Assembly (NCBI GenBank): GCA_944393175.1
Contig: CALXZH010000010.1
Location: 2,733-66,732 of the forward strand
DNA length: 64,000 nt
Direction of reading: 5' to 3'
From: an uncultured Alphaproteobacteria bacterium
GTDB taxonomy: Bacteria; Pseudomonadota; Alphaproteobacteria; RF32; CAG-239
Shown here: piece by piece, positions 1,585 to 44,556 of the stretch
Position numbering within the stretch: position 1 is the stretch's first letter
How the letters are laid out: every line of letters starts with the position of its first letter
Notes under the pieces: generated by a model
The model's database searches: none
Told to the model about the DNA's origin: nothing
Seen by the model: only the letters and a program-made list of their open reading frames with translations
Position numbers and translations under genes: made by a program

Positions 1585-1726
1585 AAACAAATTTTTTTAA
1601 GTTAAACATAAATTATAATGTCTGCAAGAGCAGATATTTTATGCAAAATAATAGTGAATTGGTCTGCATATGTAGCACAAATTTTAGGTTTGTAAATAGG
1701 TTAATAAAAAAATTTTTGGAAAAAAA

Positions 1727-2019
1727 CATTCGGCTTCGCCTCCGCTCAGTCTCGAACTCTAACTCTTTTTTGTGTTGTGAGTTCTCACTGGCCTCGTGTG
1801 GCCATAAAAAAATCCCTCCACTTGGGAGGGATGTTTTATGGCGCACTCGGCGGGGTTGGCTTCGCCGTCCTTCGCGGTGCCTTCGGCATTCGGCTGACGC
1901 CTCCGCTCAGTCTCGAACTCTAACTCTTTTTTGTGTTGTGAGTTCTCACTGGCCTCGTGAGGCCATAAAAAAATCCCTCCACTTGGGAGGGATGTTTTAT
2001 GGCGCACTCGGCGGGGTTC
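1727..2019. repeat. ~160-bp tandem direct repeat, two copies (1727-1886 and 1887-2019). Each ends with the 3'-terminal 19 nt of tRNA-Arg (tggcgcactcggcggggtt) and carries the tRNA terminator hairpin atccctccacttgggagggat.
   Basis: Near-identical 120-nt blocks at 1737-1858 and 1898-2019 differ at one position (gtgtggcc vs gtgaggcc). The unit is unusually GC-rich for this genome (ggcttcgccgtccttcgcggtgccttcggc). Confidence 0.85.
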
Positions 2020-2076
2020 GAACTCACAACCTTCTGATCCGTAGTCAGATGCTCTATCCAATTGAGCTACGAGTGC
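2000..2076 (-). tRNA. tRNA-Arg (anticodon ACG)
   Basis: Reverse complement GCACTCG-TA-GCTC-AATTGGATA-GAGC-A-TCTGA-CTACGGA-TCAGA-AGGTT-GTGAG-TTCGAAC-CCCGC-CGAGTGC-G-CCA. The T-stem has one A.C mismatch and one G.U pair. A terminator hairpin follows on the minus strand at 1968-1996. Confidence 0.75.
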
Positions 2077-3565: not shown

Positions 3566-3957
<392 letters not shown>

Positions 3958-4519: not shown

Positions 4520-4987
4520 TTAAGAATCACCTTTGAGACGGACGATACCTCTTTGTGAGCCTTTGCTCCAGGCCATTATCAGTTCTTGGGCCTGAGTAGC
4601 TAAATTTTGACTTTCTTGAATGATTTTAAAGCCATGATAGCGATAAAAATTAATAGCCGGTTCGTTTTGGGTGTAAACTTTTAAGTTTGCCGAGGTTTTA
4701 TTGCGCAAAACATAGCGCAAGAGCTTAGAACCGATTTTTTGCGATTGGTCGGTGGGCCTTACAAACAAAGCGCCGATATACCCATTTCCAAACAAGCTGA
4801 TAAAGCCTTTAATTTGGTGCTTATCTACGTAAAGATATGTTTGGGCTTGGGAAACCAACAAATCTTCAACCTGTGGCAAGTTTTCATCCCAATAATTTGC
4901 GGCAATAAACGGATGCGCCTGTTTGGTGGAAGACAGCCAAAGTTTGGAGACTTGAGAAATTTCAGATTTGAGCAAGCTGCGTATCAT
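4520..4987 (-). CDS. GNAT-family N-acetyltransferase.
   Basis: 155 aa. Acetyl-CoA binding-like motif ...FVRPTDQSQKIGSKLLRYV... (Q/R-x-x-G-x-G/A pattern). Confidence 0.6.
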   Translation of the reverse strand: MIRSLLKSEISQVSKLWLSSTKQAHPFIAANYWDENLPQVEDLLVSQAQTYLYVDKHQIKGFISLFGNGYIGALFVRPTDQSQKIGSKLLRYVLRNKTSANLKVYTQNEPAINFYRYHGFKIIQESQNLATQAQELIMAWSKGSQRGIVRLKGDS

Positions 4988-4998
4988 TTTTCTTTGCT

Positions 4999-6987
4999 TT
5001 AGATGTCCAAATCATCAACAAATTTGGCGTGTTCTATAATGAACTTGAATCTGGTTTCCGGATTTTTACCCATTAGGCGTTCTACCTGACGACGGGTTTC
5101 AAAGCATTCTTCCTTGCCCTCCTCCGTATTCGGGGTCGGAATAACCACGCGCAAGAGTGTTCTTTTGTTCTTATCCATGGTGGTTTCTTTGAGTTGTTGT
5201 GCGCTCATTTCACCCAAACCTTTGAAGCGGCTGATGTCTGGACGAATGTTGCCTTTGACCTCTTTTTTCAAAATACGGTCTTTGTCTTCATCATCAATCG
5301 CGTAGAAATTCTTATTTCCAACAACAATCTTATACAAAGGCGGGGTAGCAATATATAAATGTCCGTTTTCTATCAATTTCGGCATTTGTTGATAGAAAAA
5401 CGTCATTAGCAGCGAGGCAATATGTGCACCGTCCACATCCGCATCGGTCATAATGATGATTTTCTCATAGCGGAGGTTTTCTTCCTTATAATTTTCCTTA
5501 ATTCCGCAACCAAGGGCTTCTATCATATCTTTGATTTCTTGGTTTTGGGTGATTTTATCAAGCGAGGCGCTGGCAACGTTCAAAATCTTACCACGCAACG
5601 GCAAAATGGCTTGGGTGAATCTATCCCTACCCTGCTTGGCCGAACCACCCGCAGAATCGCCCTCAACAATGAAAATTTCGGTATTTTCGGCAGCTGCTTG
5701 CGAGCAATCAGCCAATTTGCCGGGAAGGCGCAATTTTTTGGTCGGGGTTTTGCGATTTTGGATTTTTTCTTCTTTTTTCTTTTTGCGGCTTTCGGCACGG
5801 TCAACCACATATTCAATCAAAGCCGTGGCATTTTCTTTGTCCGAACTCAGCCAGTGGTCAAACGTATCTTTAACGGCTTGTTCAACCAAACGGATGGCTT
5901 TGGTGGAGGTGAGCTTGTCTTTGGTTTGGCCTTGGAATTGCGGGTCGCGAATAAAGACAGAAAGCATAATGCAGGCATCACTCAACAAGTCTTCCGCCGT
6001 TACCGAGGCAACTTTTTTGATGTTGGCCATTTCGCCATATTCTTTAAGACTGCGAATAAGTGCCGCACGAAAACCTATTTCATGCGTGCCGCCTTCGGGC
6101 GTAATGACCGTGTTGCAATAAGAATAGCAAAAGCCGTTTTCATCTTCCGGCCAGGTTACGGCCCATTCAACACGGCCTTCATCATTGGCCAAATCGGCAT
6201 CACCGGTAAACGGCATGCGGTTAATAGTGGTGCGGGCACCTAACTGATAATTCAAAAAGTCAAGCAAGCCGTTAGGATAATGCAATTCGGCTTCCAACGG
6301 TGTTTGGTCACCCTCACTCAAAACCTCAGGCGCGCATTTCCAGTTGATGAATATCCCCTTAAACAAAAAAGCCTTTGAACGCGCCATGCGATAGACGCGG
6401 TTCGGATTTAGCTGGGAATTAGAGCCAAAGATTTCGCCATCGGGCAAAAAAGTAACCGACGTACCGCGGCGATTGGGCGCATTGCCGACCAATTCCAACG
6501 GGGTTACGGGTTTGCCTTTGGCATAAGCTTGGCGATATAACTTTTTGTCGCGTGCAATTTCTACCACCAAAGAAGATGACAAGGCATTAACTACCGATAA
6601 ACCGACACCGTGTAAGCCGCCGGAAACCTTATAAGCCCCACCGCCGAATTTTCCGCCGGAGTGAAGCATTGTCAAAATTACCTCAAGCGCTGACATATTC
6701 GGATATTTGGGGTGTGGGTCAACCGGAATGCCACGGCCGTTATCGGTAATGGTGACCGAATAGTCGGCGTTCATTTTGACTTCAATGCGCGTTGCATAGC
6801 CGGCAACAGCCTCATCCATAGAGTTGTCCAAAATCTCTGCTACCAAGTGGTGCAAAGCCGTAGCATCCGTGCCGCCGATATACATACCCGGACGAGCGCG
6901 AACGGCCTCAAGTCCTTCCAAAACCTGAATATCTTGTGCCGAATAAGTATCTTGTTTCGGCGCTGTGCTTTCAAATAAATCTGACAT
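4999..6987 (-). CDS. parE: DNA topoisomerase IV subunit B.
   Basis: 662 aa. GHKL ATPase N-terminus (LEAVRARPGMYIGGT), Toprim motifs EGDSAGGS and PLRGKILN. Lacks the ~170-aa insertion seen in the GyrB at 50628. Confidence 0.85.
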   Translation of the reverse strand: MSDLFESTAPKQDTYSAQDIQVLEGLEAVRARPGMYIGGTDATALHHLVAEILDNSMDEAVAGYATRIEVKMNADYSVTITDNGRGIPVDPHPKYPNMSALEVILTMLHSGGKFGGGAYKVSGGLHGVGLSVVNALSSSLVVEIARDKKLYRQAYAKGKPVTPLELVGNAPNRRGTSVTFLPDGEIFGSNSQLNPNRVYRMARSKAFLFKGIFINWKCAPEVLSEGDQTPLEAELHYPNGLLDFLNYQLGARTTINRMPFTGDADLANDEGRVEWAVTWPEDENGFCYSYCNTVITPEGGTHEIGFRAALIRSLKEYGEMANIKKVASVTAEDLLSDACIMLSVFIRDPQFQGQTKDKLTSTKAIRLVEQAVKDTFDHWLSSDKENATALIEYVVDRAESRKKKKEEKIQNRKTPTKKLRLPGKLADCSQAAAENTEIFIVEGDSAGGSAKQGRDRFTQAILPLRGKILNVASASLDKITQNQEIKDMIEALGCGIKENYKEENLRYEKIIIMTDADVDGAHIASLLMTFFYQQMPKLIENGHLYIATPPLYKIVVGNKNFYAIDDEDKDRILKKEVKGNIRPDISRFKGLGEMSAQQLKETTMDKNKRTLLRVVIPTPNTEEGKEECFETRRQVERLMGKNPETRFKFIIEHAKFVDDLDI

Positions 6988-7377: not shown

Positions 7378-7573
7378 CGTTTTAAATATAAAAAAATGCT
7401 TGCAAATTAAATAAATAGGGAATAAAAGAACCTTGGAATTGTGATGATTCCAAAATGTTTTAACAATAATACACACGCAGACATGGCGGGGAATTGTTTG
7501 TTTTTCGCTCCGGTGTCTTGAGTTCAAGACCGATTAGTCTGCGGAGGTTTAACCGGAAAAAGGATATTTTAAT

Positions 7574-19842: not shown

Positions 19843-20478
19843 ATGCCTAATTTAATTCAATATATTGTGCAGGATGACCCTGAATTAGAAATGAGCCAAA
19901 ATAACAAAAAGTCTTCCACTCCTTTGAGAGATAAGAATAAATCTAATCAATTCAGTTCTAAAAATTTGTTGGAAAATGATTTTTCTTATTTAGAAAAACG
20001 TGATTTATTTAATAATAAAGCAACTCTTCCTTTAAAAAGGTATAATCAATCATATAATATCGGAAAAGCTCTAGGAGATGCCTATAACATTTACAAAACA
20101 AATGGGTTTTATGCCATTGGTGAAAAATATGGAACTCCTTCGGTAAAAAAAGCTAGTAAATTGGCTAAAGAATTAGCCCCTGAACAAATTTCAGATACAG
20201 CCAAACATAGTGCTGTAAGCTGTGTTGGAGCTTCTGGAGGCATATTGTCTGCGATTGAAACACTAGGAGGAGGTGTTGCAAAAGAAATAAAAGATTTTTA
20301 TGAAAAGACTACTAATCCTCTTTTAAGAAACCAATATGGAGGAATATTGGGAATAGTTAAAGATAGTGCAAAAGATTTAAAAAATGACGTTCAAGCAAGT
20401 TGGAAAGGATTCAAAACTGGGAATAGTCAAATCTGTAAAGAATATTTACCTCCATATTTAAAAAATAAAATTAAATAA
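19843..20478 (+). CDS. Hypothetical protein (211 aa) with a Gly-rich C-terminal region. No signal peptide.
   Basis: ATG at 19843 is preceded by GAGGAG. The ORF track extends upstream to 19756 but that part lacks an RBS and overlaps the dnaJ terminator. Terminator hairpin tagccggttgacttaccggcta plus T-run at 20482-20515. Confidence 0.5.
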   Translation: MPNLIQYIVQDDPELEMSQNNKKSSTPLRDKNKSNQFSSKNLLENDFSYLEKRDLFNNKATLPLKRYNQSYNIGKALGDAYNIYKTNGFYAIGEKYGTPSVKKASKLAKELAPEQISDTAKHSAVSCVGASGGILSAIETLGGGVAKEIKDFYEKTTNPLLRNQYGGILGIVKDSAKDLKNDVQASWKGFKTGNSQICKEYLPPYLKNKIK

Positions 20479-20551
20479 ATTTAATAGCCGGTTGACTTAC
20501 CGGCTATTTTTATTATTATATCGTCAACGTAATTCAAATAAGCTAAATAAA

Positions 20552-21115
20552 ATGTCCCTAAATGCTAAACAAAAATATTTATGTATCGGTTTGTTGTTGT
20601 CAACATTGCTTTTTCCGGTGCAACTTGTTTTCTTATTTTTGATTATTCCTCCGATTTATGTAGGCTTTATTGTGCCTTTTTTAATTTGGAAAATTGCTTT
20701 CAACGGACAGGTCAAAAATATTTCTAAGATTTCCTTATTGTGGAAAATTCCTCTTATATTATCTTTTAATATTTTAAATATGACTTTTGGGGAATTTTTA
20801 GCTTTAAATGTGTTTTATATTCTTCCATACAATCCTTTTATACTGCTTGTGATATTCGGAATTGTTATTATTTGTTTGCGCATTATTAGCTATGCATTGA
20901 TTATTCTTATTTGGGATTTTAATGCTTTTCAAATTTCTTCAAAAATAAAAAAATTGCTTTTAACCTTCGTCTTGCTCCTGTGTTTATGCGGTAGCTCTTT
21001 CTTATATAACATATGGGTTTCTCCGGACGATGTCTCTTATGATAGTTATTTTATGTATTGTTTGCAAAATGGTACTTGCGAGAAAATTCCTGAACTTATT
21101 GACAATAGGACTTAA
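20552..21115 (+). CDS. Hypothetical polytopic membrane protein with a Cys-containing C-terminal tail.
   Basis: Hydrophobic helices throughout. The start is taken as MSLNAKQ inside ORF 20492..21115. Confidence 0.4.
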   Translation: MSLNAKQKYLCIGLLLSTLLFPVQLVFLFLIIPPIYVGFIVPFLIWKIAFNGQVKNISKISLLWKIPLILSFNILNMTFGEFLALNVFYILPYNPFILLVIFGIVIICLRIISYALIILIWDFNAFQISSKIKKLLLTFVLLLCLCGSSFLYNIWVSPDDVSYDSYFMYCLQNGTCEKIPELIDNRT

Positions 21116-21160
21116 GATGTATTTTAATACTCTAAAGCTAAATTATCTGAAAGAATATCT

Positions 21161-21691
21161 ATGACTAAAATTTCTAAAATCATAAATTCCGTTAATAATG
21201 ATATTTGGGGGGAGAGTCCTCTTAGCTTTTATTTTTCTTTTAATGGATTTTTTAATCGTCTTCAGTTTTTTGGCGCGATAATGACGCTTAATTTTTTTCT
21301 GAAATATTTGTTAGCTTTAGATATTTTTTTAATCTCTCTTATCTCTTTGGCGATTGTTTTTTATGCTAAAATTGCTGTAATACAAAAAAGAAGCCGTGAT
21401 TTAAATATGAAAGGAACATTCTTTATTTTAATATTTTCATTAGCTAACCCGATGAACATATATTTACAAACGATGAAAAGCTTTAACCTTCCGGTAAATT
21501 TTTATATCCAGAAAGGTTTTGGCGTAGTTCTTGTTTTGTATCTTTTAGTGTTTTTGTTTTTGCAATTTATGCCGGGGAAAAAGGAGAAAAATCCTGAATT
21601 AATCAGCCCTTTGCTCAAGCATCCAAATATTTACTTTGCGGTATGTGTGTTGGTTTCTGCCCTTGGGTTTGGGATTTTGAAAAATTTGTAA
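21161..21691 (+). CDS. Hypothetical membrane protein. The N-terminus is faintly DUF805-like.
   Basis: 176 aa, 3-4 TM helices. Confidence 0.4.
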   Translation: MTKISKIINSVNNDIWGESPLSFYFSFNGFFNRLQFFGAIMTLNFFLKYLLALDIFLISLISLAIVFYAKIAVIQKRSRDLNMKGTFFILIFSLANPMNIYLQTMKSFNLPVNFYIQKGFGVVLVLYLLVFLFLQFMPGKKEKNPELISPLLKHPNIYFAVCVLVSALGFGILKNL

Positions 21692-21737
21692 TTAACAATT
21701 TTGAATCAGGCAATTTGTTTTTTTAATCAAATAAAAA

Positions 21738-21765
21738 TTGATTTTAGCAAAATAATCTTTATACT
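21738..21765 (+). promoter_or_regulatory. Sigma70-like promoter TTGATT-N16-TATACT driving the structured RNA/leader that follows.
   Basis: Hexamers at 21738-21743 and 21760-21765. Confidence 0.4.
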
Positions 21766-21772
21766 TTGGTGT

Positions 21773-22023
21773 ATGGCAAAGTGAGGGGGCTCATTTTGCT
21801 TAGCACTCGGTGCGGAGCTGTCGAAAGCTCTTATCATCTTCGGTGTTGGGATATAACATCGTTAATTAAAAGTCGAATTTCGGCTTTTAGTAATTATATC
21901 CCCGACTTAGGGTCGGGGAGCTTTTAGCGTATGTCCAAGGGTTTCCCTAAAGGCTAAAAGAGTCATTTAAGATGATATGATTTTCGAACTCTCCGACCAC
22001 CTGCTCTGAGGTGGTCTTTTTTT
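21773..22023 (+). ncRNA. Candidate structured RNA (~250 nt): a long 5' leader/riboswitch-like attenuator of the lipoprotein gene, or an independent sRNA. Identity unknown.
   Basis: Non-coding stretch with several stable hairpins (CCCCGAC-TTAGG-GTCGGGG, GAGCU-GUCGAA-AGCUC, AGGG-UUU-CCCU). It ends in a strong intrinsic terminator (gaccacctgctctgaggtggtc plus T7, 21995-22023), which lies 28 nt before the ATG at 22051. Confidence 0.4.
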
Positions 22024-22050
22024 ATATAATATCCTTGGAGAAAAGAAATC

Positions 22051-22455
22051 ATGCTCAAAAAAATATCTTTTATCTTTCTATTTTTGCTTTGCGGTTGCAC
22101 TAATCTCTCCCGACAAGAAGAGCTTAATATTCGCTATTTGCAAAGCCAAGGCGTGACGATTGAAAAACCTGCCGGAAATTTCGTTCGTCCGGCAAACCCT
22201 GTTGCCGCCGGTGCGCTCAACATTCTACCTGGGGGCGGAAATTTCTATTTGGCTACCGGAAACGGGGCTGATAGCTCTCACTGGCTTTATGGTGGATTGA
22301 ACCTTATTACCTGGCCGTTTTCCGTTCTTTGGGGTGTGCCTGAAGCGGCAATCGACGCTAACCGAATCAATCAAAGAGAAATGATTTATTACTACCAATT
22401 TGACCCTTTAGGTTCTCAAGAGCTCAAAAAAGAAGGCAAAAAGTTAATGCAATAA
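22051..22455 (+). CDS. Lipoprotein (lipobox LLCGC), hypothetical.
   Basis: 134 aa. Signal peptide plus lipobox. Gly-rich middle. RBS GGAG present. Confidence 0.55.
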   Translation: MLKKISFIFLFLLCGCTNLSRQEELNIRYLQSQGVTIEKPAGNFVRPANPVAAGALNILPGGGNFYLATGNGADSSHWLYGGLNLITWPFSVLWGVPEAAIDANRINQREMIYYYQFDPLGSQELKKEGKKLMQ

Positions 22456-37204: not shown

Positions 37205-38656
37205 ATGGCTGACGAAGCTACTATAATAAACAATTCTGTTCAAGACCAATGGGGACAGATTTGCAGCCAATTAAAAAATGAAGTCGGTGAAACTGCTTTT
37301 GACAGTTGGTTAAAACCGCTTACTCCGGGTTCCTTTTCTGACGGCGTAATGAATATTTGTGTGCCGACGCGTTTTATGCGCAACTGGGTCATCACCCATT
37401 ATTCCGACAGAATCCACAAAATTTGGGAAAAGAAAAACCCCGCCATTAAAAGTGTTAATTTTGTGGTTCAAGCTATGCAGGACGAAGCTAAAGGTCTTTA
37501 TAATCCTTCCTGCCGCTCCTTATTGAAGAAAATTTCTTCAAGTCCTTCTCCTTCGAATATTTATCAAAGCGGTATTAATTCCGTTTTGGCTAACAATAAT
37601 GATTTTCAGGTTAGCGGAGACAGCCAACAATCCTTATCCGTTCCTTTGAATCCTCAATATACTTTCGATAACTTTGTGGTCGGCAAAACAAACGAATTTG
37701 CTTATGCCGCTGCAAGAAAAGTTGCCGAATCCAGAAATGTTTCTTTTAACCCGTTGTTTTTATACTCCGGCGTTGGTTTGGGCAAAACACACTTAATGCA
37801 CGCTATTGCTTGGCACATTAAACAACAAGACCCGACCAGAAACATTGTTTATTTGTCAGCTGAAAAGTTTATGTATAAGTTTGTTCGCGCTTTGCGTTAC
37901 AAAGATACTACAGCTTTCAAAGAACAATTCCGTTCCGTTGACGTTTTGATGGTTGATGACGTTCAATTTATGGGCGGCAAAGACACCACTCAAGCAGAGT
38001 TCTTCTACACCTTTAATTCTTTGATTGAGGAAGGTCGCCAAATCATTATCTCTGCCGACAAATCTCCTTCAGATTTGGAAGGTATCGAGGCTCGCCTGAA
38101 ATCTCGCCTCGGTTGCGGTTTGGTTGCCGATATTCATCCGACGGATTTTGATTTGAGAATGGGAATTCTTGAAAATAAGGCTCGCCAGTTGGGTGTTGAA
38201 CTACCGCAAAAAGTGGCTGAATTTTTGGCTCAAAAAATTACTTCTAACATTCGCGAACTTGAAGGCGCTTTGCGCAGAGTTATCGCTCACTCTCAACTCT
38301 TGTCTGACAAAGAAATTACTTTGGATATGACACAAGATGTGTTGAAAGATATGCTGCGCTCTTTTGATAAACGCACAACTATTGATGAAATTCAAAAGAA
38401 AGTGGCCGAACACTTCAATATTTCGGTTAAAGAAATGCAATCTTCTCGCAGAGCTCGCACGGTTGCCCGTCCAAGACAAATTGCCATGTATTTGGCTAAG
38501 CAACTGACTTCTCGTTCTTTACCCGAAATCGGACGCAAGTTTGACAGAGACCATACAACCGTCATGCATGCCGTTCGCAAAGTTGAAGAGTTGATTTTGG
38601 AAGATGCTTCTTTGGCAGAAAACGTTGATGCTTTAAGACGTGCTTTGGAAGCATAA
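37205..38656 (+). CDS. dnaA: Chromosomal replication initiator DnaA.
   Basis: AAA+ Walker A GVGLGKTHL, sensor motifs, C-terminal DNA-binding helix ...HTTVMHAVRKVE. A 480-bp AT-rich upstream region (36719-37204) precedes it. Confidence 0.95.
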   Translation: MADEATIINNSVQDQWGQICSQLKNEVGETAFDSWLKPLTPGSFSDGVMNICVPTRFMRNWVITHYSDRIHKIWEKKNPAIKSVNFVVQAMQDEAKGLYNPSCRSLLKKISSSPSPSNIYQSGINSVLANNNDFQVSGDSQQSLSVPLNPQYTFDNFVVGKTNEFAYAAARKVAESRNVSFNPLFLYSGVGLGKTHLMHAIAWHIKQQDPTRNIVYLSAEKFMYKFVRALRYKDTTAFKEQFRSVDVLMVDDVQFMGGKDTTQAEFFYTFNSLIEEGRQIIISADKSPSDLEGIEARLKSRLGCGLVADIHPTDFDLRMGILENKARQLGVELPQKVAEFLAQKITSNIRELEGALRRVIAHSQLLSDKEITLDMTQDVLKDMLRSFDKRTTIDEIQKKVAEHFNISVKEMQSSRRARTVARPRQIAMYLAKQLTSRSLPEIGRKFDRDHTTVMHAVRKVEELILEDASLAENVDALRRALEA

Positions 38657-38820
38657 GTTATTCTCTCCTAAAAAAATAAAGGAAACCTCGTAAATCATTA
38701 CGGGGTTTTCTTTTATCGAATCGCCATCAAAAAGCTGTTGATAAGCCGTGTTTTTTGTTATGATTTTGGTGCAATGTGCTAAAATCAGCCTAATAAAAAA
38801 CTAATTTTTTGGTGATGAAA

Positions 38821-39939
38821 ATGAAATTTACTATCGAACGCGCAAATTTGCTCAAATCTTTAAGCCACGTCCAAAGCATCGTGGAAAAAAGAAATACGAT
38901 TCCCGTTCTGTCTAACGTGCGAATCGAAGCCTTAGAAGACGGCATCAGCTTTAAGGCGACCGATATGGATACCGAAATTACGGAAATTGTAGATGCAAAA
39001 ACCTCTGAAGTCGGCGCAACAACCGCTCCGGCACATATGCTCTACGATATTGTCAGAAAATTATCGGACGGCTCAGATGTTGAACTCACCTTCCCTGATG
39101 AAAAAGGACAATTAACGATTGCTTCCGGAAAATCTAAGTTTTCTCTGTCTTGCATAGGAGTTGAAGATTTTCCGGTTATTTCGGGTGACAAGTTGCCGAC
39201 AAACTTTGTGATGGCTAAAGAAGAATTAAAAGACGTTATTGACCGCACAAAATTTGCCGTTTCAACCGAAGAAACCAGATATTATTTGAACGGTGTTTAT
39301 ATGCATGCCAAAAACGAAGGCGAAGCTAAAGTTTTGCGCATTGTTGCAACCGACGGCCACCGTTTGGCTTGTGTTGAATCGCCTTTGCCGAGTGGTGCCG
39401 AAAATATGGTCGGCGTTATTATTCCGAGAAAAACAATCGGCGAAGTTCGCAAACTCTTAGATGACACAAGTGCCGATGAAATTTCGGTTGCTCTGTCTGA
39501 AAATAAAATTCGTTTCACGATGGAAGACATTACTTTAACATCAAAACTCATTGACGGAACTTATCCGGATTATGAACGCGTTATTCCGACCGATAACGAT
39601 AAAGTTTTGGAATTGGGCGTTAAAGACTTGGCTGCTGCCGTTGACCGTGTTTCGGTTGTGGCTGAAAGAACTCGCGCCATTAAAATGCTGACGGCCAAGA
39701 ATCATGTTACAATCACAACTTCAAGTCCTGACCTTGGCAGTGCTCAAGAAGAATTGGAAGCAAAATATGACAGCGAGCCCTTGGAAATCGGCTATAACTT
39801 CCGCTATTTGTTGGATATTTTGGCTGAGGTTAAGGGTGAGAGCGTTCGTATCAGTTTTGCAGACGGTTCTTCTCCTTCCGTTATTCATGATACCTCGGAT
39901 TCAAGCGCAATTTATGTTTTGATGCCAATGAGAGTATAA
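38821..39939 (+). CDS. dnaN: DNA polymerase III beta sliding clamp.
   Basis: MKFTIERANLLKSL... The start is chosen at the third Met of ORF 38809. Confidence 0.9.
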   Translation: MKFTIERANLLKSLSHVQSIVEKRNTIPVLSNVRIEALEDGISFKATDMDTEITEIVDAKTSEVGATTAPAHMLYDIVRKLSDGSDVELTFPDEKGQLTIASGKSKFSLSCIGVEDFPVISGDKLPTNFVMAKEELKDVIDRTKFAVSTEETRYYLNGVYMHAKNEGEAKVLRIVATDGHRLACVESPLPSGAENMVGVIIPRKTIGEVRKLLDDTSADEISVALSENKIRFTMEDITLTSKLIDGTYPDYERVIPTDNDKVLELGVKDLAAAVDRVSVVAERTRAIKMLTAKNHVTITTSSPDLGSAQEELEAKYDSEPLEIGYNFRYLLDILAEVKGESVRISFADGSSPSVIHDTSDSSAIYVLMPMRV

Positions 39940-39940
39940 G

Positions 39941-41161
39941 TTGGATAATACTGCCGAAATACTAAATTTTGCTCATCAGATAAAGTCAGGTGTTACACGC
40001 CTGACTTTAACTGATTTCAGAAACTATGCACATTTGCGGATTAATGCCGATTTGGCACCGATTGTTATTACCGGTGACAATGGTGTCGGCAAAACAAATA
40101 TTTTGGAAGCTATCTCTTTTCTTACGCCGGGGAGAGGCATGCGCAGTGCAAAGCTCTCGGATATCAGACGCATTAGTCCTTGTTTGGTTGATGATGAATA
40201 TGCCCCCACAGCCATAAGCAATACCAGCTGGGCGGTATCGGCAACCGTACGGAATAATGATGACGACATTGAAATCGGAACTGCCGTTGAAAAATCTGTT
40301 CGTGAAGACGATGAAGATTCAAGAAGTTTTGATAGGAGAATCGTTAAAATTGACGGAATTAAAACCAATTCACAAGCCGATTTGGGGCGCTATATTTCCG
40401 CAATTTGGCTGACCCCGCAAATGGATAGACTGTTTCGCGGCGGCTCTCAACCCAGAAGGAGTTTTTTGGACCGTTTGGTATATGCGTTTGATGTCGAACA
40501 CGCCAAGCGCACCTCCAACTTTGAACATTTATACAAACAATGGTATCAACTCCTGAAAAGCGGGCAACATGATAATTTTTGGCTGAATTCTTTAGAGGCA
40601 GAAATGGCCGGACTTGGTGTGGCTATTGCCGCGGCTAGGCGCGAACAAATTGCCAAGCTCAACACCTTTATTGAGCATGAACCCGATGATGTGTTCCCTA
40701 ATGTTTTGCTTGAGCTCGACGGTATGGTTGAAAAAATGCTGGATAAAATGCCGGCGCTTGATGCCGAAGAAGCCTATTGTGAAAGCCTGAAAGCGCAAAG
40801 GAGAAACGTGTTATACAATGACTTTGTGGACGGCGTTAACAGGACAGATTTTAAGGTTTATTACAAAAAGAAAAGGATGCCGGCCGAACTTTGCTCAACC
40901 GGAGAGCAAAAGTCTTTGCTCATCAGCATTATTTTAGCACAAACAAAGTGCCAAACCTTGGACAAAGGATTTGCTCCCGTATTGTTGCTTGATGAGGTTG
41001 TGGCGCATCTTGATGATATTAAACGCGAGGCCTTGCTTGAAAAAATTCGCGATTTGAGAGTGCAAGCCTGGATTACCTCAACAAATCCCGATTTGTTTTC
41101 CTCCCTCAAAGATGAAGCCCAATTTTGGCAAGTCAAAAACAACGCGATTGTTGAGATGTAA
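39941..41161 (+). CDS. recF: DNA replication/repair protein RecF.
   Basis: LTLTDFRNY...ITGDNGVGKTNILEAISF Walker A. SMC-like signature region near the C-terminus. Confidence 0.85.
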   Translation: MDNTAEILNFAHQIKSGVTRLTLTDFRNYAHLRINADLAPIVITGDNGVGKTNILEAISFLTPGRGMRSAKLSDIRRISPCLVDDEYAPTAISNTSWAVSATVRNNDDDIEIGTAVEKSVREDDEDSRSFDRRIVKIDGIKTNSQADLGRYISAIWLTPQMDRLFRGGSQPRRSFLDRLVYAFDVEHAKRTSNFEHLYKQWYQLLKSGQHDNFWLNSLEAEMAGLGVAIAAARREQIAKLNTFIEHEPDDVFPNVLLELDGMVEKMLDKMPALDAEEAYCESLKAQRRNVLYNDFVDGVNRTDFKVYYKKKRMPAELCSTGEQKSLLISIILAQTKCQTLDKGFAPVLLLDEVVAHLDDIKREALLEKIRDLRVQAWITSTNPDLFSSLKDEAQFWQVKNNAIVEM

Positions 41162-42387: not shown

Positions 42388-43308
42388 ATGAAGACAAAAG
42401 CTCCCCGTAATAAAACCTTGGAGCTCAACAGGGCACAGACGCATACTTACGCCGCGCAAGCACTCAAACTCAAAAGACAAGCCAGTTTACCGGAAGTTTT
42501 GAACCAAATTATTTGGCAAGACGCTTTTAAGGCGATTGATTTGTTGCCTGAAAATTCGGTGGATTTGATGATTGTTGATCCGCCCTACAATCTGACTAAA
42601 AACTTTGGAAAATCCGTTTTCAAAGAAATGGGGCTGAATTCTTATAAAGAGTGGTTGGATTCTTGGTTGTCTAAGACGGTGCGTCTTCTCAAGGATAATG
42701 CATCCATCTATATTTGTGCCGATTGGAAAACATCTATTGCCATTCCTGAGGTGGCCGGAAAATATTTTTTGTTGCAAAACCGAATTTCTTGGGAGAGAGA
42801 AAAAGGCAGAGGCGCCGCAAACAACTGGAAAAATTGCTTGGAAGATATTTGGTTTTTTACCAAAGGAAAAGATTATACCTTTAATTTGGATAATGTTAAA
42901 ATTCAGCGAAAGGTCATTGCCCCTTATCGGGATAAGTCCGGTTTGCCAAAAGACTGGGTGCAAAACGATGATGAAAGATACCGTTTGACAGCTCCTTCAA
43001 ATATTTGGACGGATATATCTATTCCCTTCTGGTCAATGCCGGAAAACACCCCTCACCCGACGCAAAAACCCGAAAAACTGATTGCTAAACTTATTTTGGC
43101 CTCAAGCAACGAAGGTGATGTGGTGTTTGACCCGTTTGTCGGCTCTGGAACCACCGCCGTTACCGCAAAAAAACTCAGGCGCAATTTTATTGGTATTGAA
43201 AAAGAGCAAGAATATGTTGCTTTGGCCCTCAAGCGCTTAGAACTGGCTGAAGAATTTCCAGAAATTCAAGGATATGAAAACGGAATTTTTCGCGCCCGTA
43301 ACGGATAA
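42388..43308 (+). CDS. ccrM: Beta-class N6-adenine DNA methyltransferase, CcrM-like. No adjacent restriction enzyme, so an orphan MTase.
   Basis: DPPYN motif IV precedes motif I (HPTQKPE...DPFVGSGTT), which is the beta-class order. Lacks the C-terminal ~80-aa extension of Caulobacter CcrM. Confidence 0.7.
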   Translation: MKTKAPRNKTLELNRAQTHTYAAQALKLKRQASLPEVLNQIIWQDAFKAIDLLPENSVDLMIVDPPYNLTKNFGKSVFKEMGLNSYKEWLDSWLSKTVRLLKDNASIYICADWKTSIAIPEVAGKYFLLQNRISWEREKGRGAANNWKNCLEDIWFFTKGKDYTFNLDNVKIQRKVIAPYRDKSGLPKDWVQNDDERYRLTAPSNIWTDISIPFWSMPENTPHPTQKPEKLIAKLILASSNEGDVVFDPFVGSGTTAVTAKKLRRNFIGIEKEQEYVALALKRLELAEEFPEIQGYENGIFRARNG

Positions 43309-43367
43309 TAAAATATTTTTTTTAATCCTCTTGTTTTTCAGTCTACGGGACCCTAAATGGAATTATA

Positions 43368-43388
43368 GGTGCTTATGGTCATAAGCAC
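43368..43388. promoter_or_regulatory. Perfect 9-bp inverted repeat GTGCTTATG-gt-CATAAGCAC; candidate operator upstream of the first tiny ORF.
   Basis: Palindrome about 20 nt upstream of the RBS of the 39-aa ORF. Confidence 0.35.
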
Positions 43389-43410
43389 AGTCTTTTTAGG
43401 AGAATAAAAA

Positions 43411-43530
43411 ATGTCTCACAAAACTAAAAAAAATTCACAAAATTCATCTAATTCTTCAACAAACGCGACAAATACTGCAAATGCTTCTGCCGCAAGTAAT
43501 ACAAAAAATACTAAAAGTTCTAAAAAATAA
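43411..43530 (+). CDS. Tiny ORF (39 aa), very polar low-complexity peptide: MSHKTKKNSQNSSNSSTNATNTANASAASNTKNTKSSKK.
   Basis: Strong SD (AGGAG) 8 nt upstream. Its own intrinsic terminator cagcctcctttcctttgcgggggctg plus T-run at 43548-43585. Confidence 0.45.
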   Translation: MSHKTKKNSQNSSNSSTNATNTANASAASNTKNTKSSKK

Positions 43531-43684
43531 ATTCGTCTTATGTTAAGTACGACAGCCTCCTTTCCTTTGCGGGGGCTGTTTTTTTATTAATAAAAAGTCT
43601 ATAAAACCTGTTTTTTCTCACATAACATCTTACATCTTTAATGAACCGATTAGGATTCAATCATAACCTTTAAGGAGAAAAAAC

Positions 43685-43810
43685 ATGTCTTGTAACTGCA
43701 ATAATAACAATACAAAAACAACAAAATCTGCCTCAAGTAACTCTAACTCATCTAACGAATCTAACTCCACAAAATCTACTTCCTCTAAAAAAGGAAGTTG
43801 CAATAAATAA
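43685..43810 (+). CDS. Tiny ORF (41 aa), polar Ser/Asn/Thr-rich peptide with terminal Cys pairs: MSCNCNNNNTKTTKSASSNSNSSNESNSTKSTSSKKGSCNK.
   Basis: SD AAGGAG 8 nt upstream. Its own terminator (ctcctcaacttttcagttggggag plus T-run, 43835-43868). Confidence 0.45.
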   Translation: MSCNCNNNNTKTTKSASSNSNSSNESNSTKSTSSKKGSCNK

Positions 43811-43932
43811 ATATACTCCCTAAATCAAGAAATCTCCTCAACTTTTCAGTTGGGGAGATTTTTTTGTTAGACTATTTTTGATTATTGATTATATTAGGTG
43901 TTGTTTGTGTTTTTAGAATAAGGAACGGCAAA

Positions 43933-44556
43933 ATGAAAATATCAATTTGGGCGGCTTGTTGCGCTGTTTTGCTCTTGAGTGTTCATCCGGCGTTGGCGCA
44001 AAAACAAGAAAACTTAAAACAAATTGAAGACTATCTTAACAACATCAAAACCTTGCAGGCCTCCTTTGTGCAAACAGCAAGCAACGGCGGCATGTCTGAA
44101 GGAAAATTATATATTCAAAAACCAAACAAAATTCGCATGGAATATAATCCGCCGGTGGATGTCGATATTATCGGTGATGGCGATTATATCGTCTATAACG
44201 ATAAAGAGTTAGACCAGGTCACAAATATTGACTATGACGATATTCCGGCCAGCTTGATTTTGGCAAATGATGTGAAGTTGGACGGGAAAGAATTTAAGGT
44301 TACCGACTACTATCATGATAACGGTATTACCAAAATTACCGTGCAATATATGGAAAAAGAAGATATTGGTCCGATTTCTTTGACTTTTAACAATAACCCG
44401 TTTGAGCTCAAACAATGGAGCATTGTTGACCCGCAAAGCGTGGAAGTTACCGTATCTCTTTATAACGCGCAAAAAGATGTGGCTCTGGAGAGCTCTTTGT
44501 TCAAGTTCAAAAAAGAAAATAAGGGTCCGAAAAACTACAAAAAAGGACGCCGTTAA
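43933..44556 (+). CDS. lolA: Outer-membrane lipoprotein carrier protein LolA.
   Basis: Signal peptide. ...LQASFVQTASNGG...GKLYIQKPNKIRMEY... LolA signature. The start is placed at the Met preceded by AGGAA. Confidence 0.7.
   Translation: MKISIWAACCAVLLLSVHPALAQKQENLKQIEDYLNNIKTLQASFVQTASNGGMSEGKLYIQKPNKIRMEYNPPVDVDIIGDGDYIVYNDKELDQVTNIDYDDIPASLILANDVKLDGKEFKVTDYYHDNGITKITVQYMEKEDIGPISLTFNNNPFELKQWSIVDPQSVEVTVSLYNAQKDVALESSLFKFKKENKGPKNYKKGRR

Follow-up and report, generated by a model that had tools for sequence, protein, structure and literature searches.

In an uncultured alphaproteobacterium, the interval that separates lolA from an orphan DNA methyltransferase gene carries two very small open reading frames (ORFs), sORF1 and sORF2, which we analyzed within a window of 64,000 nucleotides (nt), the whole stretch of DNA under study (assembly GCA_944393175.1, contig CALXZH010000010.1, positions 2,733 to 66,732). 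Comparison with related loci makes it very probable that sORF2 is truly a translated gene and belongs to a conserved family, and sORF1 is probably a genuine gene as well. Judged by sequence and position, sORF2 represents, in this genome, a family of peptides whose Cys-bearing ends are conserved and are joined by a polar, low-complexity linker that evolves fast, and sORF1 is a Cys-less, strongly basic companion of the kind that several lineages pair with a Cys-capped peptide. The family is uncatalogued and restricted to a clade of uncultured animal-gut Alphaproteobacteria. As an explanation of the whole locus we lean slightly toward a two-unit copy of a lineage-specific, fast-changing micro-gene cluster, with the peptide and RNA roles that are proposed below.

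Coding status of sORF2 and sORF1

Several lines of evidence bear on the translation of sORF2. In comparison with its ortholog at L062 (L numbers denote loci of related assemblies compared with the window), sORF2 has a synonymous divergence (dS) of 0.70 and a nonsynonymous divergence (dN) of 0.059, that is, a dN/dS of 0.085; in the two remaining frames the ratio is 1.8 and 0.7. The corresponding dS/dN values of the flanking genes, which sORF2 matches, are 0.62/0.016 for the methyltransferase and 0.66/0.049 for LolA. Across five orthologs the variable columns are distributed 3/3/12 over the three codon positions. Given this third-position bias and the low dN/dS, sORF2 is under purifying selection as a protein. 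The 5' region around its promoter-like element is 89% identical to that of L062 and thus better conserved than the synonymous sites, which are about 45% diverged. Positional orthologs of sORF2 are present at L062, L092-97, and L098c.

The public record does not reflect this gene. An exact look-up of the sORF1 and sORF2 peptides in public gene calls found neither on record, in keeping with the suggestion of an earlier note on this DNA that such ORFs escape annotation, and the gene calls in L092-L097 (about 1726-1872, minus strand) miss sORF2 and instead annotate an antisense ORF of 48 amino acids (aa). We rejected this antisense ORF as a gene, since the substitution pattern favors the plus-strand frame: the ratio of nonsynonymous to synonymous polymorphism (pN/pS) is 0.44 for the antisense ORF versus 0.12 for the sense frame of sORF2. 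Because of this difference, and because the promoter-like elements and terminators are oriented along the plus strand, we regard the antisense call as a mis-annotation.

The earlier note, which was made from the sequence alone, had described two tiny ORFs of 39 and 41 aa, each with a Shine-Dalgarno (SD) sequence at good spacing and a terminator of its own, and had taken them for real small genes and not random AT-rich ORFs. All of these features are present, and the strong translation and termination signals, together with the dN/dS of sORF2, bear out the reading as genes. An AGGAG at comparable spacing precedes only 6 of the 341 ATG-initiated ORFs of 20-60 aa in the window and 3 of the 50 ORFs of at least 150 aa. 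The terminators begin 17-22 nt past the stop codon. That of sORF1 folds with -18.2 kcal/mol in a 60-nt segment (z -3.9) and that of sORF2 with -22.2 kcal/mol (z -5.0), and in both cases none of 200 shuffled sequences was as stable; these thermodynamic folds serve as the evidence here, as a perfect-stem terminator scan misses both hairpins, whose stems are imperfect. At the position of the sORF2 terminator a hairpin is retained in 12 loci, with differing stems.

The predicted products are of extreme composition. Neither contains Leu, Ile, Val, Phe, Trp, or Tyr; Ser, Asn, Thr, and Lys make up 79% of sORF1 and 83% of sORF2; the grand average of hydropathy (GRAVY) is about -1.6 for both; and the net charges are +7 and +5, respectively. 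Gly accounts for 0% of sORF1 and 2.4% of sORF2, and Cys for none of 39 residues and 3 of 41 (7%). Single-sequence AlphaFold2, which carries little weight for a peptide that lacks an alignment, predicted no secondary structure (mean predicted local distance difference test scores of 67 and 62), so that the polar, disordered character expected from the sequence is also what the model suggests.

The case for sORF1 draws on fewer data. Its peptide recurs unchanged in one related species (L092/L093), with two synonymous and no nonsynonymous changes over 25 synonymous and 92 nonsynonymous sites (p about 0.05 by our own estimate), a pattern that agrees with coding constraint at low power. The sORF1 unit (43309-43590) differs from its counterpart in L092 (1378-1659) at 4 of 282 positions (1.4%; 98.6% identity); nucleotide divergence from L092 is 7.2% for the methyltransferase gene, 9.3% for lolA, and about 5.5% for the sORF2 unit. 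In L062 and L095-97 sORF1 is missing, and the sequence past the methyltransferase stop codon there joins the sORF2 unit directly.

A micro-gene cluster in related gut Alphaproteobacteria

The interval from the methyltransferase stop codon to lolA consists of two collinear units of about 280 bp each. Their full-length alignment matches the promoter-like box, an SD-ATG-TCT segment, the last codons, and the terminator, and the two units look like an old tandem duplication on this alignment. Relatives of the methyltransferase, with 66-78% identity, occur in about 28 metagenome-assembled genomes of uncultured gut Alphaproteobacteria and, with 97% identity, at L062; LolA homologs added loci at 93%, 91%, and 79% identity. 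In many of these relatives the intergenic position upstream of lolA holds one to three SD-led polar sORFs. Members of the family were found at this locus in L001, L003, L007, L014, L017, L028, L062, L081, L086, L089, L090, and L092-100, and the family with Cys-bearing termini occupies it in more than 15 related assemblies. Conservation of similar sORFs at the amino acid level, which the earlier note had put forward as its own check, is thus seen both in the spread of the family and in the dN/dS of sORF2. In L005, L006, L008-L011, and L025, lolA directly follows the methyltransferase gene and no sORF is present.

The methyltransferase gene forms the left border of the cluster in most relatives (synteny in L001-L028, L062, L086, L089, L090, and L092-L100), and lolA is the invariant right border. 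At L014 two genes have been inserted after the methyltransferase gene while the sORF still lies directly upstream of lolA; because this insertion leaves the adjacency of sORF and lolA intact, lolA and not the methyltransferase gene is the constant neighbor of the sORFs. Together the flanks of the related loci comprise the methyltransferase, lolA, xthA, and porin genes.

The commonest Cys-capped, or B-type, peptide has the form M[SA]C[NK]DMRD, a linker of 25-40 residues rich in Ser, Lys, Glu, and Asn, and a C-terminal GGCGC[ST]RNY. It is carried by L001, L003, L017, L028, L081/P0002, L086/P0004, L089/P0005, L090/P0007, and P0001. The residues M1, C3, D5, M6, R7, D8, and S11 and, at the other end, G49, C50, G51, C52, and Y56 are invariant, and the linker is variable. 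C-terminal variants are NCGCGCGNK in L007 and SSGCGCAE in L014. The typical three cysteines are thus one near the N-terminus and a C-terminal CxC, an arrangement that is mirrored in sORF2 of the window, with its N-terminal CxC and one Cys near the C-terminus.

In L003, L086, and L089 a Cys-less, Ser-rich, basic (A-type) peptide is encoded upstream of the Cys-capped one, as in the window. The A-type peptides of L003 (MVKSKKERENVKSS...) and L086 (MVSESSKESMSAAASSTKKPSSRSSASRSSKRKSSSK) are encoded bicistronically with their partners, and that of L089 (MESSKKES...SRSKRK) has a promoter-like box, hairpin, and terminator of its own, which is the architecture of the window. The loci L098-100, from the species whose LolA is 79% identical, hold three polar sORFs (1277-1876): one of 35 aa with C-x7-C, an acidic one of 72 aa with ...SGGCPCSG... 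(a CPC motif), and MACGNSKNAKSASGNSNSS..., which is L098c, the positional ortholog of sORF2 that has lost the C-terminal Cys. The species of L098-100 is very prevalent: its LolA appears in 907 blocks of the public assembly index. A further ORF that resembles the Cys-less A-type peptides lies in L004 (5307-5471, minus strand, opposite to the methyltransferase gene); it encodes 54 aa rich in Ser and Arg (MVSSSSKSEMES...SRSRSSSRK) and has an AGGAG site.

Database searches gave little beyond these loci. Neither Pfam nor NCBIfam returned a family above threshold, and NCBIfam searches of the window peptides at E values up to 10 gave noise only and no precursor family. An exhaustive HMMER profile search of 1.84 billion representative proteins produced seven matches, of which five are convincing relatives, none of them named; a frameshifted fragment and a low-complexity protein of 581 aa were rejected. 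A word-seeded profile search of 5.8 billion proteins gave two matches to the profile of the Cys family and none at E <=1 to an sORF2/sORF1-type profile. In the JGI metagenomes, none of 27 matches to a peptide pattern was confirmed, and the three loci that matched a C-terminal DNA pattern proved to be chance matches in unrelated reading frames. A general literature search on small disordered Cys proteins returned nothing relevant.

Transcription signals, leader hairpins, and surroundings

Upstream of the ATG, by 39-60 nt, the element (C/T)TGTTT-N16/17-TAnAT is present in 9 of 10 sORF units of the window and its relatives, and we infer that each unit would be transcribed from this putative promoter. 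A second element, TT(T/A)(A/G)ACT-N16-TATAT(T/A), followed by the SD sequence of lolA, comes after the last sORF terminator in all 12 aligned loci, with TATAT invariant. This arrangement suggests a separate promoter for lolA, with the sORF units insulated from that gene.

In the MSCNDMRD clade, the motif TTGG(T/C)TAGG(T/G)TCTATTG lies just upstream of, or overlaps, the -35-like box of each sORF unit. It is found once each in L001 (about 4937-4953), L003 (about 4927-4944), L007 (about 5211-5237), L028 (about 838-853), and L081 (about 492-509) and twice in L089 (about 2583-2600 and 2915-2931), and it is absent from the window. This motif may be the site of a regulator. A sigma-54 reading of a TTGGTTAGG...TTG motif in the relatives was rejected on manual check, as the spacing is 2 nt too long.

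A palindrome lies in the leader of sORF1. It folds into an 8-bp stem (-9.2 kcal/mol, z -2.6; z -2.45 in the comparison of leaders), starts about 10 nt past the predicted -10 box, close to where the sORF1 mRNA is predicted to begin, and was scored terminator-like in our scan. About 10 of the 17 leaders in the window and its relatives have a hairpin of 5-11 bp at the same position, each of a different sequence (L003, L007, L014, L028, L062, L086, L089, L090, and L098), and several of these hairpins are followed by a T-run; the z values include -4.9 (L090), -4.1 (L098b), -2.5 (L086), and -2.5 (L089b). Because structure but not sequence is kept at this leader position, an RNA feature is a likelier reading of the palindrome than an operator, and we think it reasonably probable, from these comparisons, that it acts as a stem-loop in the sORF1 mRNA leader. 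Its role could be that of a 5' stabilizing stem-loop, of a leader attenuator, or of a terminator of the methyltransferase transcript.

The earlier note was right that the palindrome is a perfect 9-bp inverted repeat, and the further step, to a repressor site, is the least supported element of that first reading. Spelled out, this site would be the DNA operator through which a dimeric repressor controls sORF1. The overlap of the perfect 9+9 repeat with the predicted transcription start is a classic operator position, and the palindrome is 100% identical in L092, although this identity carries no weight because the whole sORF1 unit is nearly identical there. Against an operator, the palindrome occurs as a single copy in the window with its half-sites at chance frequency (13 found, 11.7 expected), it has no copy at the paralogous sORF2 unit, the hairpins of the relatives at the same position are unrelated in sequence, and it is followed by a T-run and was scored terminator-like. 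We therefore consider the operator reading very unlikely and propose that the sORF1 mRNA would begin with a stem-loop, formed by the palindrome, that serves as a leader stabilizer or attenuator.

Features of the sORF locus and its immediate flanks (window coordinates)
Feature	Position	Strand	Description
Methyltransferase gene	42388-43308	+	306 aa, orphan N6/N4 DNA methyltransferase, Pfam PF01555 (E 2e-47)
sORF1 promoter-like element (inferred)	43331-43359	+	TTGTTT (43331-43336), 17-nt spacer, TAAATG (43354-43359)
Palindrome	43369-43388	+	Perfect 9+9 repeat, GTGCTTATG-gt-CATAAGCAC, then CTTTTT
sORF1 Shine-Dalgarno	43398-43402	+	AGGAG, 8 nt ahead of ATG
sORF1	43411-43530	+	39 aa, MSHKTKKNSQNSSNSSTNATNTANASAASNTKNTKSSKK; Cys-less, basic, Ser/Asn/Thr/Lys-rich (A-type)
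sORF1 intrinsic terminator	43552-43586	+	Hairpin 43552-43579, 9-bp GC-rich stem and T7 run
sORF2 promoter-like element (inferred)	43608-43636	+	CTGTTT, 17-nt spacer, TACATC
Antisense ORF	43657-43803	-	48 aa, Leu/Glu/Asp-rich, over sORF2
sORF2 Shine-Dalgarno	43672-43677	+	AAGGAG, 7 nt ahead of ATG
sORF2	43685-43810	+	41 aa, MSCNCNNNNTKTTKSASSNSNSSNESNSTKSTSSKKGSCNK; Cys3 and Cys5 (CxC), Cys39 (B-type, Cys-capped)
sORF2 intrinsic terminator	43827-43866	+	Hairpin 43827-43864, long stem and T7 run
lolA promoter-like site	43868-43895	+	TAGACT, 16-nt spacer, TATATT; abuts sORF2 terminator
lolA	43933-44556	+	Pfam PF03548 (E 2e-28)

The surroundings of the locus are those of a housekeeping region. As dnaA-dnaN-recF (37205-41161) precede the sORFs by about 5 kb and gyrB (50628-53069) follows them by about 7 kb, the micro-gene cluster lies in an origin-proximal housekeeping region. 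A Pfam scan covered 48 of the 55 non-overlapping window ORFs of at least 90 codons; 15 of the 48 had no match, and the others include dnaA-dnaN-recF, EIIA, HPr, xthA, a porin, an OmpR-type regulator, gyrB, a second GyrB/ParE-like gene, polA, dnaK/J, rpsB/tsf, and similar genes. Rfam, applied to the whole window, recovered only tRNAs and an rpsB leader and no family in the sORF region; the leader (RF01815, 48 bits, 7472-7569) lies upstream of rpsB-tsf, and the three tRNA genes are at 990-1062, 2003-2076 (minus strand), and 3566-3638. Four consecutive ORFs of 240, 207, 176, and 134 aa without a Pfam match (19756-22455) fall where the GC content of the window is lowest (0.31 at 20-22 kb) and may be a foreign or lineage-specific island. 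A moderately hydrophobic ORF of 38 aa (59181-59297, minus strand) is preceded by an AGGAG site and followed by a terminator-like site with a perfect stem; it is probably spurious because it lies antisense within a PBP1-type gene (57898-59772).

Possible roles of the peptides and competing explanations

We propose that the sORF peptides would be abundant, cytosolic, and disordered. No signal sequence or lipobox was seen, as the peptides have no hydrophobic segment and begin with MSC or MSH followed by polar residues, although no dedicated signal-peptide predictor was run; given this absence, we take them to be cytosolic. By analogy with known systems, the three terminal thiols of the Cys-capped peptide could act as a redox-active or soft-metal (Cu(I), Zn) clasp, comparable with the CGC triad and with the CXC that DUF4266 proteins have at the C-terminus, and the Cys-less basic partner might bind polyanions (RNA, DNA, or the ribosome) or be solubilizing. 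CxC motifs are classic soft-metal ligands, and a conserved N-terminal C-x-D-M...M, as in the main family, would likewise suit Cu(I). Although this thiol redox or metal mechanism is the one that we prefer, we hold it tentatively and regard it as rather improbable.

The likeness to each of these systems is partial. DUF4266 (PF14086) comprises small secreted proteins with a conserved C-terminal CXC that are encoded in ApbE/DUF3570/thioredoxin-like/DsbD clusters and for which redox cycling has been proposed (bioRxiv 10.1101/2021.01.07.425746). It is the sole Pfam family touched by our peptides: 9 of the 15 B-type members match it, at best with about 18 bits (E 0.0015-0.005) and thus below the gathering cutoff of 27, and the matches cover the last 30 or so profile positions, that is, the C-terminal CXC end. 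In the same Pfam searches sORF2 and sORF1 of the window had no DUF4266 match. Both groups are small (about 50 aa) and have a Gly-flanked CxC (GGCGC) at the very chain end; in the relatives the C-terminal CxC takes the forms GGCGC, CGCGC, and GCPC. In sORF2 of the window, Cys3 and Cys5 form a CxC at the opposite end, and one Cys only, Cys39, lies near the C-terminus. The B-type family differs further from DUF4266 in a second conserved Cys motif, at the N-terminus, and in its low-complexity linker. The B-type family is not a member of DUF4266 and shares with it a Gly-flanked CXC terminus. No ApbE, DUF3570, thioredoxin, or DsbD gene is among the 48 scanned window ORFs.

The CXC/CGC triads mimic protein disulfide isomerase (PDI), and for CGC an E0' of -167 mV is reported, which is close to the value of the PDI active site (Woycechowsky and Raines 2003, as cited in PMC4316792). 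At its C-terminus the main family conserves exactly Gly-Cys-Gly-Cys, and L098b has CPC, whereas sORF2 of the window has CNC, and at the opposite chain end. The chemistry of the CXC/CGC triad is known from synthetic peptides and from domains of larger proteins; we know of no natural free cytosolic bacterial micro-protein built around a CGC triad. With metallothioneins, such as the fungal Cu-metallothioneins, mycobacterial MymT, and cyanobacterial SmtA, the peptides share a small size, the lack of an aromatic or hydrophobic core, and CxC in a sequence rich in Ser, Asn, Gly, and Lys that is probably unstructured without ligand; low mass without aromatics holds for the window peptides, and the main family ends in a single Tyr. 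Metallothioneins, however, typically contain about 15-30% Cys in CxC, CC, or CxxC clusters. The Cys-capped peptides have three Cys in 41-56 residues (5-7%; 3 of 56 in L003b) and sORF1 has none, so that one metal site at most and no thiolate cluster could be formed, and we identified no metal-responsive regulator or operator. With 7% Cys, sORF2 falls short of a metallothionein, and the suggestion in the earlier note of a metal-binding or modified peptide is speculative.

The nearest analogy for the Cys-less sORF1 is found among small basic nucleoid- or ribosome-associated peptides such as Coxiella ScvA, Escherichia coli Sra, and bS22, which are disordered, 30-45 aa in length, and strongly expressed from stand-alone genes; these are, however, rich in Arg, Lys, and Gln without a Ser/Asn bias, and no sequence similarity was detected. 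Hydrophilins are defined by more than 6% Gly together with high hydrophilicity. The window peptides are as hydrophilic as this definition asks, but their Gly content falls well short of it.

An alternative is that the peptides are generic hydrophilic or basic micro-proteins, that is, stress protectants or ribosome- or nucleoid-associated peptides, in which the polar chain is functional and the cysteines are secondary. The shared composition of sORF1, L003a, L086a, L089b, and L098c, with net charges of +6 to +7 and 0-1 Cys, speaks for it, as do the shifting or vanishing Cys positions between lineages and the vicinity of dnaA/dnaN/recF combined with a very strong SD, as would be expected of abundant housekeeping peptides. 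In the main family, however, invariant residues lie only at the Cys-bearing termini and the polar linker is least conserved, and this weakens the alternative; moreover, the Gly contents are not those of hydrophilins, Lys at 15-18% is low for protamine-like or ribosomal peptides, and no Pfam or NCBIfam match to such families was found. We give it a limited chance. It is much harder to sustain that the peptides are precursors of ribosomally synthesized and post-translationally modified peptides, with thioether, thiazole, or radical-SAM chemistry on Ser, Thr, or Cys and maturases encoded elsewhere in the genome. They are short and rich in Ser, Thr, and Cys, with a leader-like conserved N-terminal motif and a core-like C-terminal GGCGC..Y, they occur as two-peptide modules, and the C-terminal Tyr after Cys-Gly is, we assume, reminiscent of cofactor precursors. 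Yet no radical-SAM, LanB/C/M, YcaO, MNIO, or peptidase/exporter gene was found among the 48 scanned window ORFs or among the genes read beside the related sORFs, whose neighbors are always housekeeping genes, no NCBIfam precursor family matched, the number and position of Cys in the supposed core vary, and one paralog is Cys-free; we judge this account unlikely.

A non-coding reading, on which one or both units are small RNAs or the ORFs have arisen by chance in intergenic DNA rich in AT, is excluded for sORF2 by its codon-position periodicity and dN/dS of 0.085, and is conceivable for sORF1, whose unit is 98.6% identical to that of L092 as against 91-93% for the flanking genes at the DNA level, has a 5' hairpin and a terminator like those of a small RNA, and is absent from L062 and L095-97; low-complexity A-rich sequence also readily stays open. 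On the other side, both ORFs have a perfect SD of a kind rare in the window, both substitutions in sORF1 are synonymous, SD-led Cys-less polar ORFs recur at the locus in distant relatives with unrelated DNA, and Rfam has no family here, so we see little room for a non-coding origin. Lastly, a short ORF followed by a terminator lies directly upstream of lolA in every carrier, and four amino acids strongly dominate the codon content, as in leader peptides of an attenuator that would control lolA-xthA through charged Ser, Asn, Thr, or Lys tRNA. In 12 of 12 aligned loci a conserved promoter-like site of lolA comes after the terminator; this argues against such an attenuator, and on this ground we rejected it. 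In addition, many relatives have lolA directly after the methyltransferase gene without an sORF, the terminator lies 17-22 nt past the stop, folds of the post-ORF sequence show the terminator hairpin only (no dedicated search for competing pairing was made), lolA is unconnected with these amino acids, and the peptide termini are conserved as protein; the idea is scarcely credible.

Our preferred explanation, a micro-gene cluster with peptide and RNA roles, has several points against it. A stricter sigma-70 scan of the window reported neither sORF promoter, and the promoters and start sites given here follow from consensus matches. The coding test for sORF1 depends on two substitutions, and the near-identity of its unit to that of L092 could, from the sequence comparison, mean RNA-level constraint or recent transfer or recombination; recent spread by recombination fits the presence/absence polymorphism of the unit. 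The palindrome and its T-run could be no more than the terminator of the methyltransferase transcript. The resemblance to DUF4266 is below threshold and may be driven by low complexity together with GGCGC. Cys positions shift, with L098c lacking the C-terminal Cys, L007 and L014 lacking the N-terminal one, and the A-types having none; because Cys is lost in L098c and absent from the A-type peptides, a thiol mechanism cannot explain the whole cluster. Finally, since alignments of low-complexity peptides are unreliable, the proposed homology of MSCNC with MSCNDMRD rests mainly on position and unit architecture.

On present evidence the locus is not a new mechanism. If the explanation as a micro-gene cluster is correct, these are micro-genes under purifying selection that standard annotation has missed, with the opposite strand annotated in several assemblies. 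At 41-56 aa the peptides would offer a synthesizable system for terminal CxC caps in a cytosolic disordered peptide, and the family also suits the study of micro-gene duplication, divergence, and loss and of 5' leader hairpins in very short mRNAs. A bolder reading, which we regard as quite improbable, is that these bacteria maintain beside the replication origin a cassette of autonomous, rapidly diversifying micro-genes whose products are gene-encoded low-molecular-weight thiols, disordered peptides conserved at their terminal Cys/CxC caps only. Such thiols would buffer redox state or Cu(I)/Zn in the cytosol or act as a free-standing CGC disulfide-exchange catalyst, with the basic partner tuning localization or solubility. 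If that were true, they would be a peptide counterpart of glutathione-type thiols and a previously undescribed class of bacterial micro-proteins.

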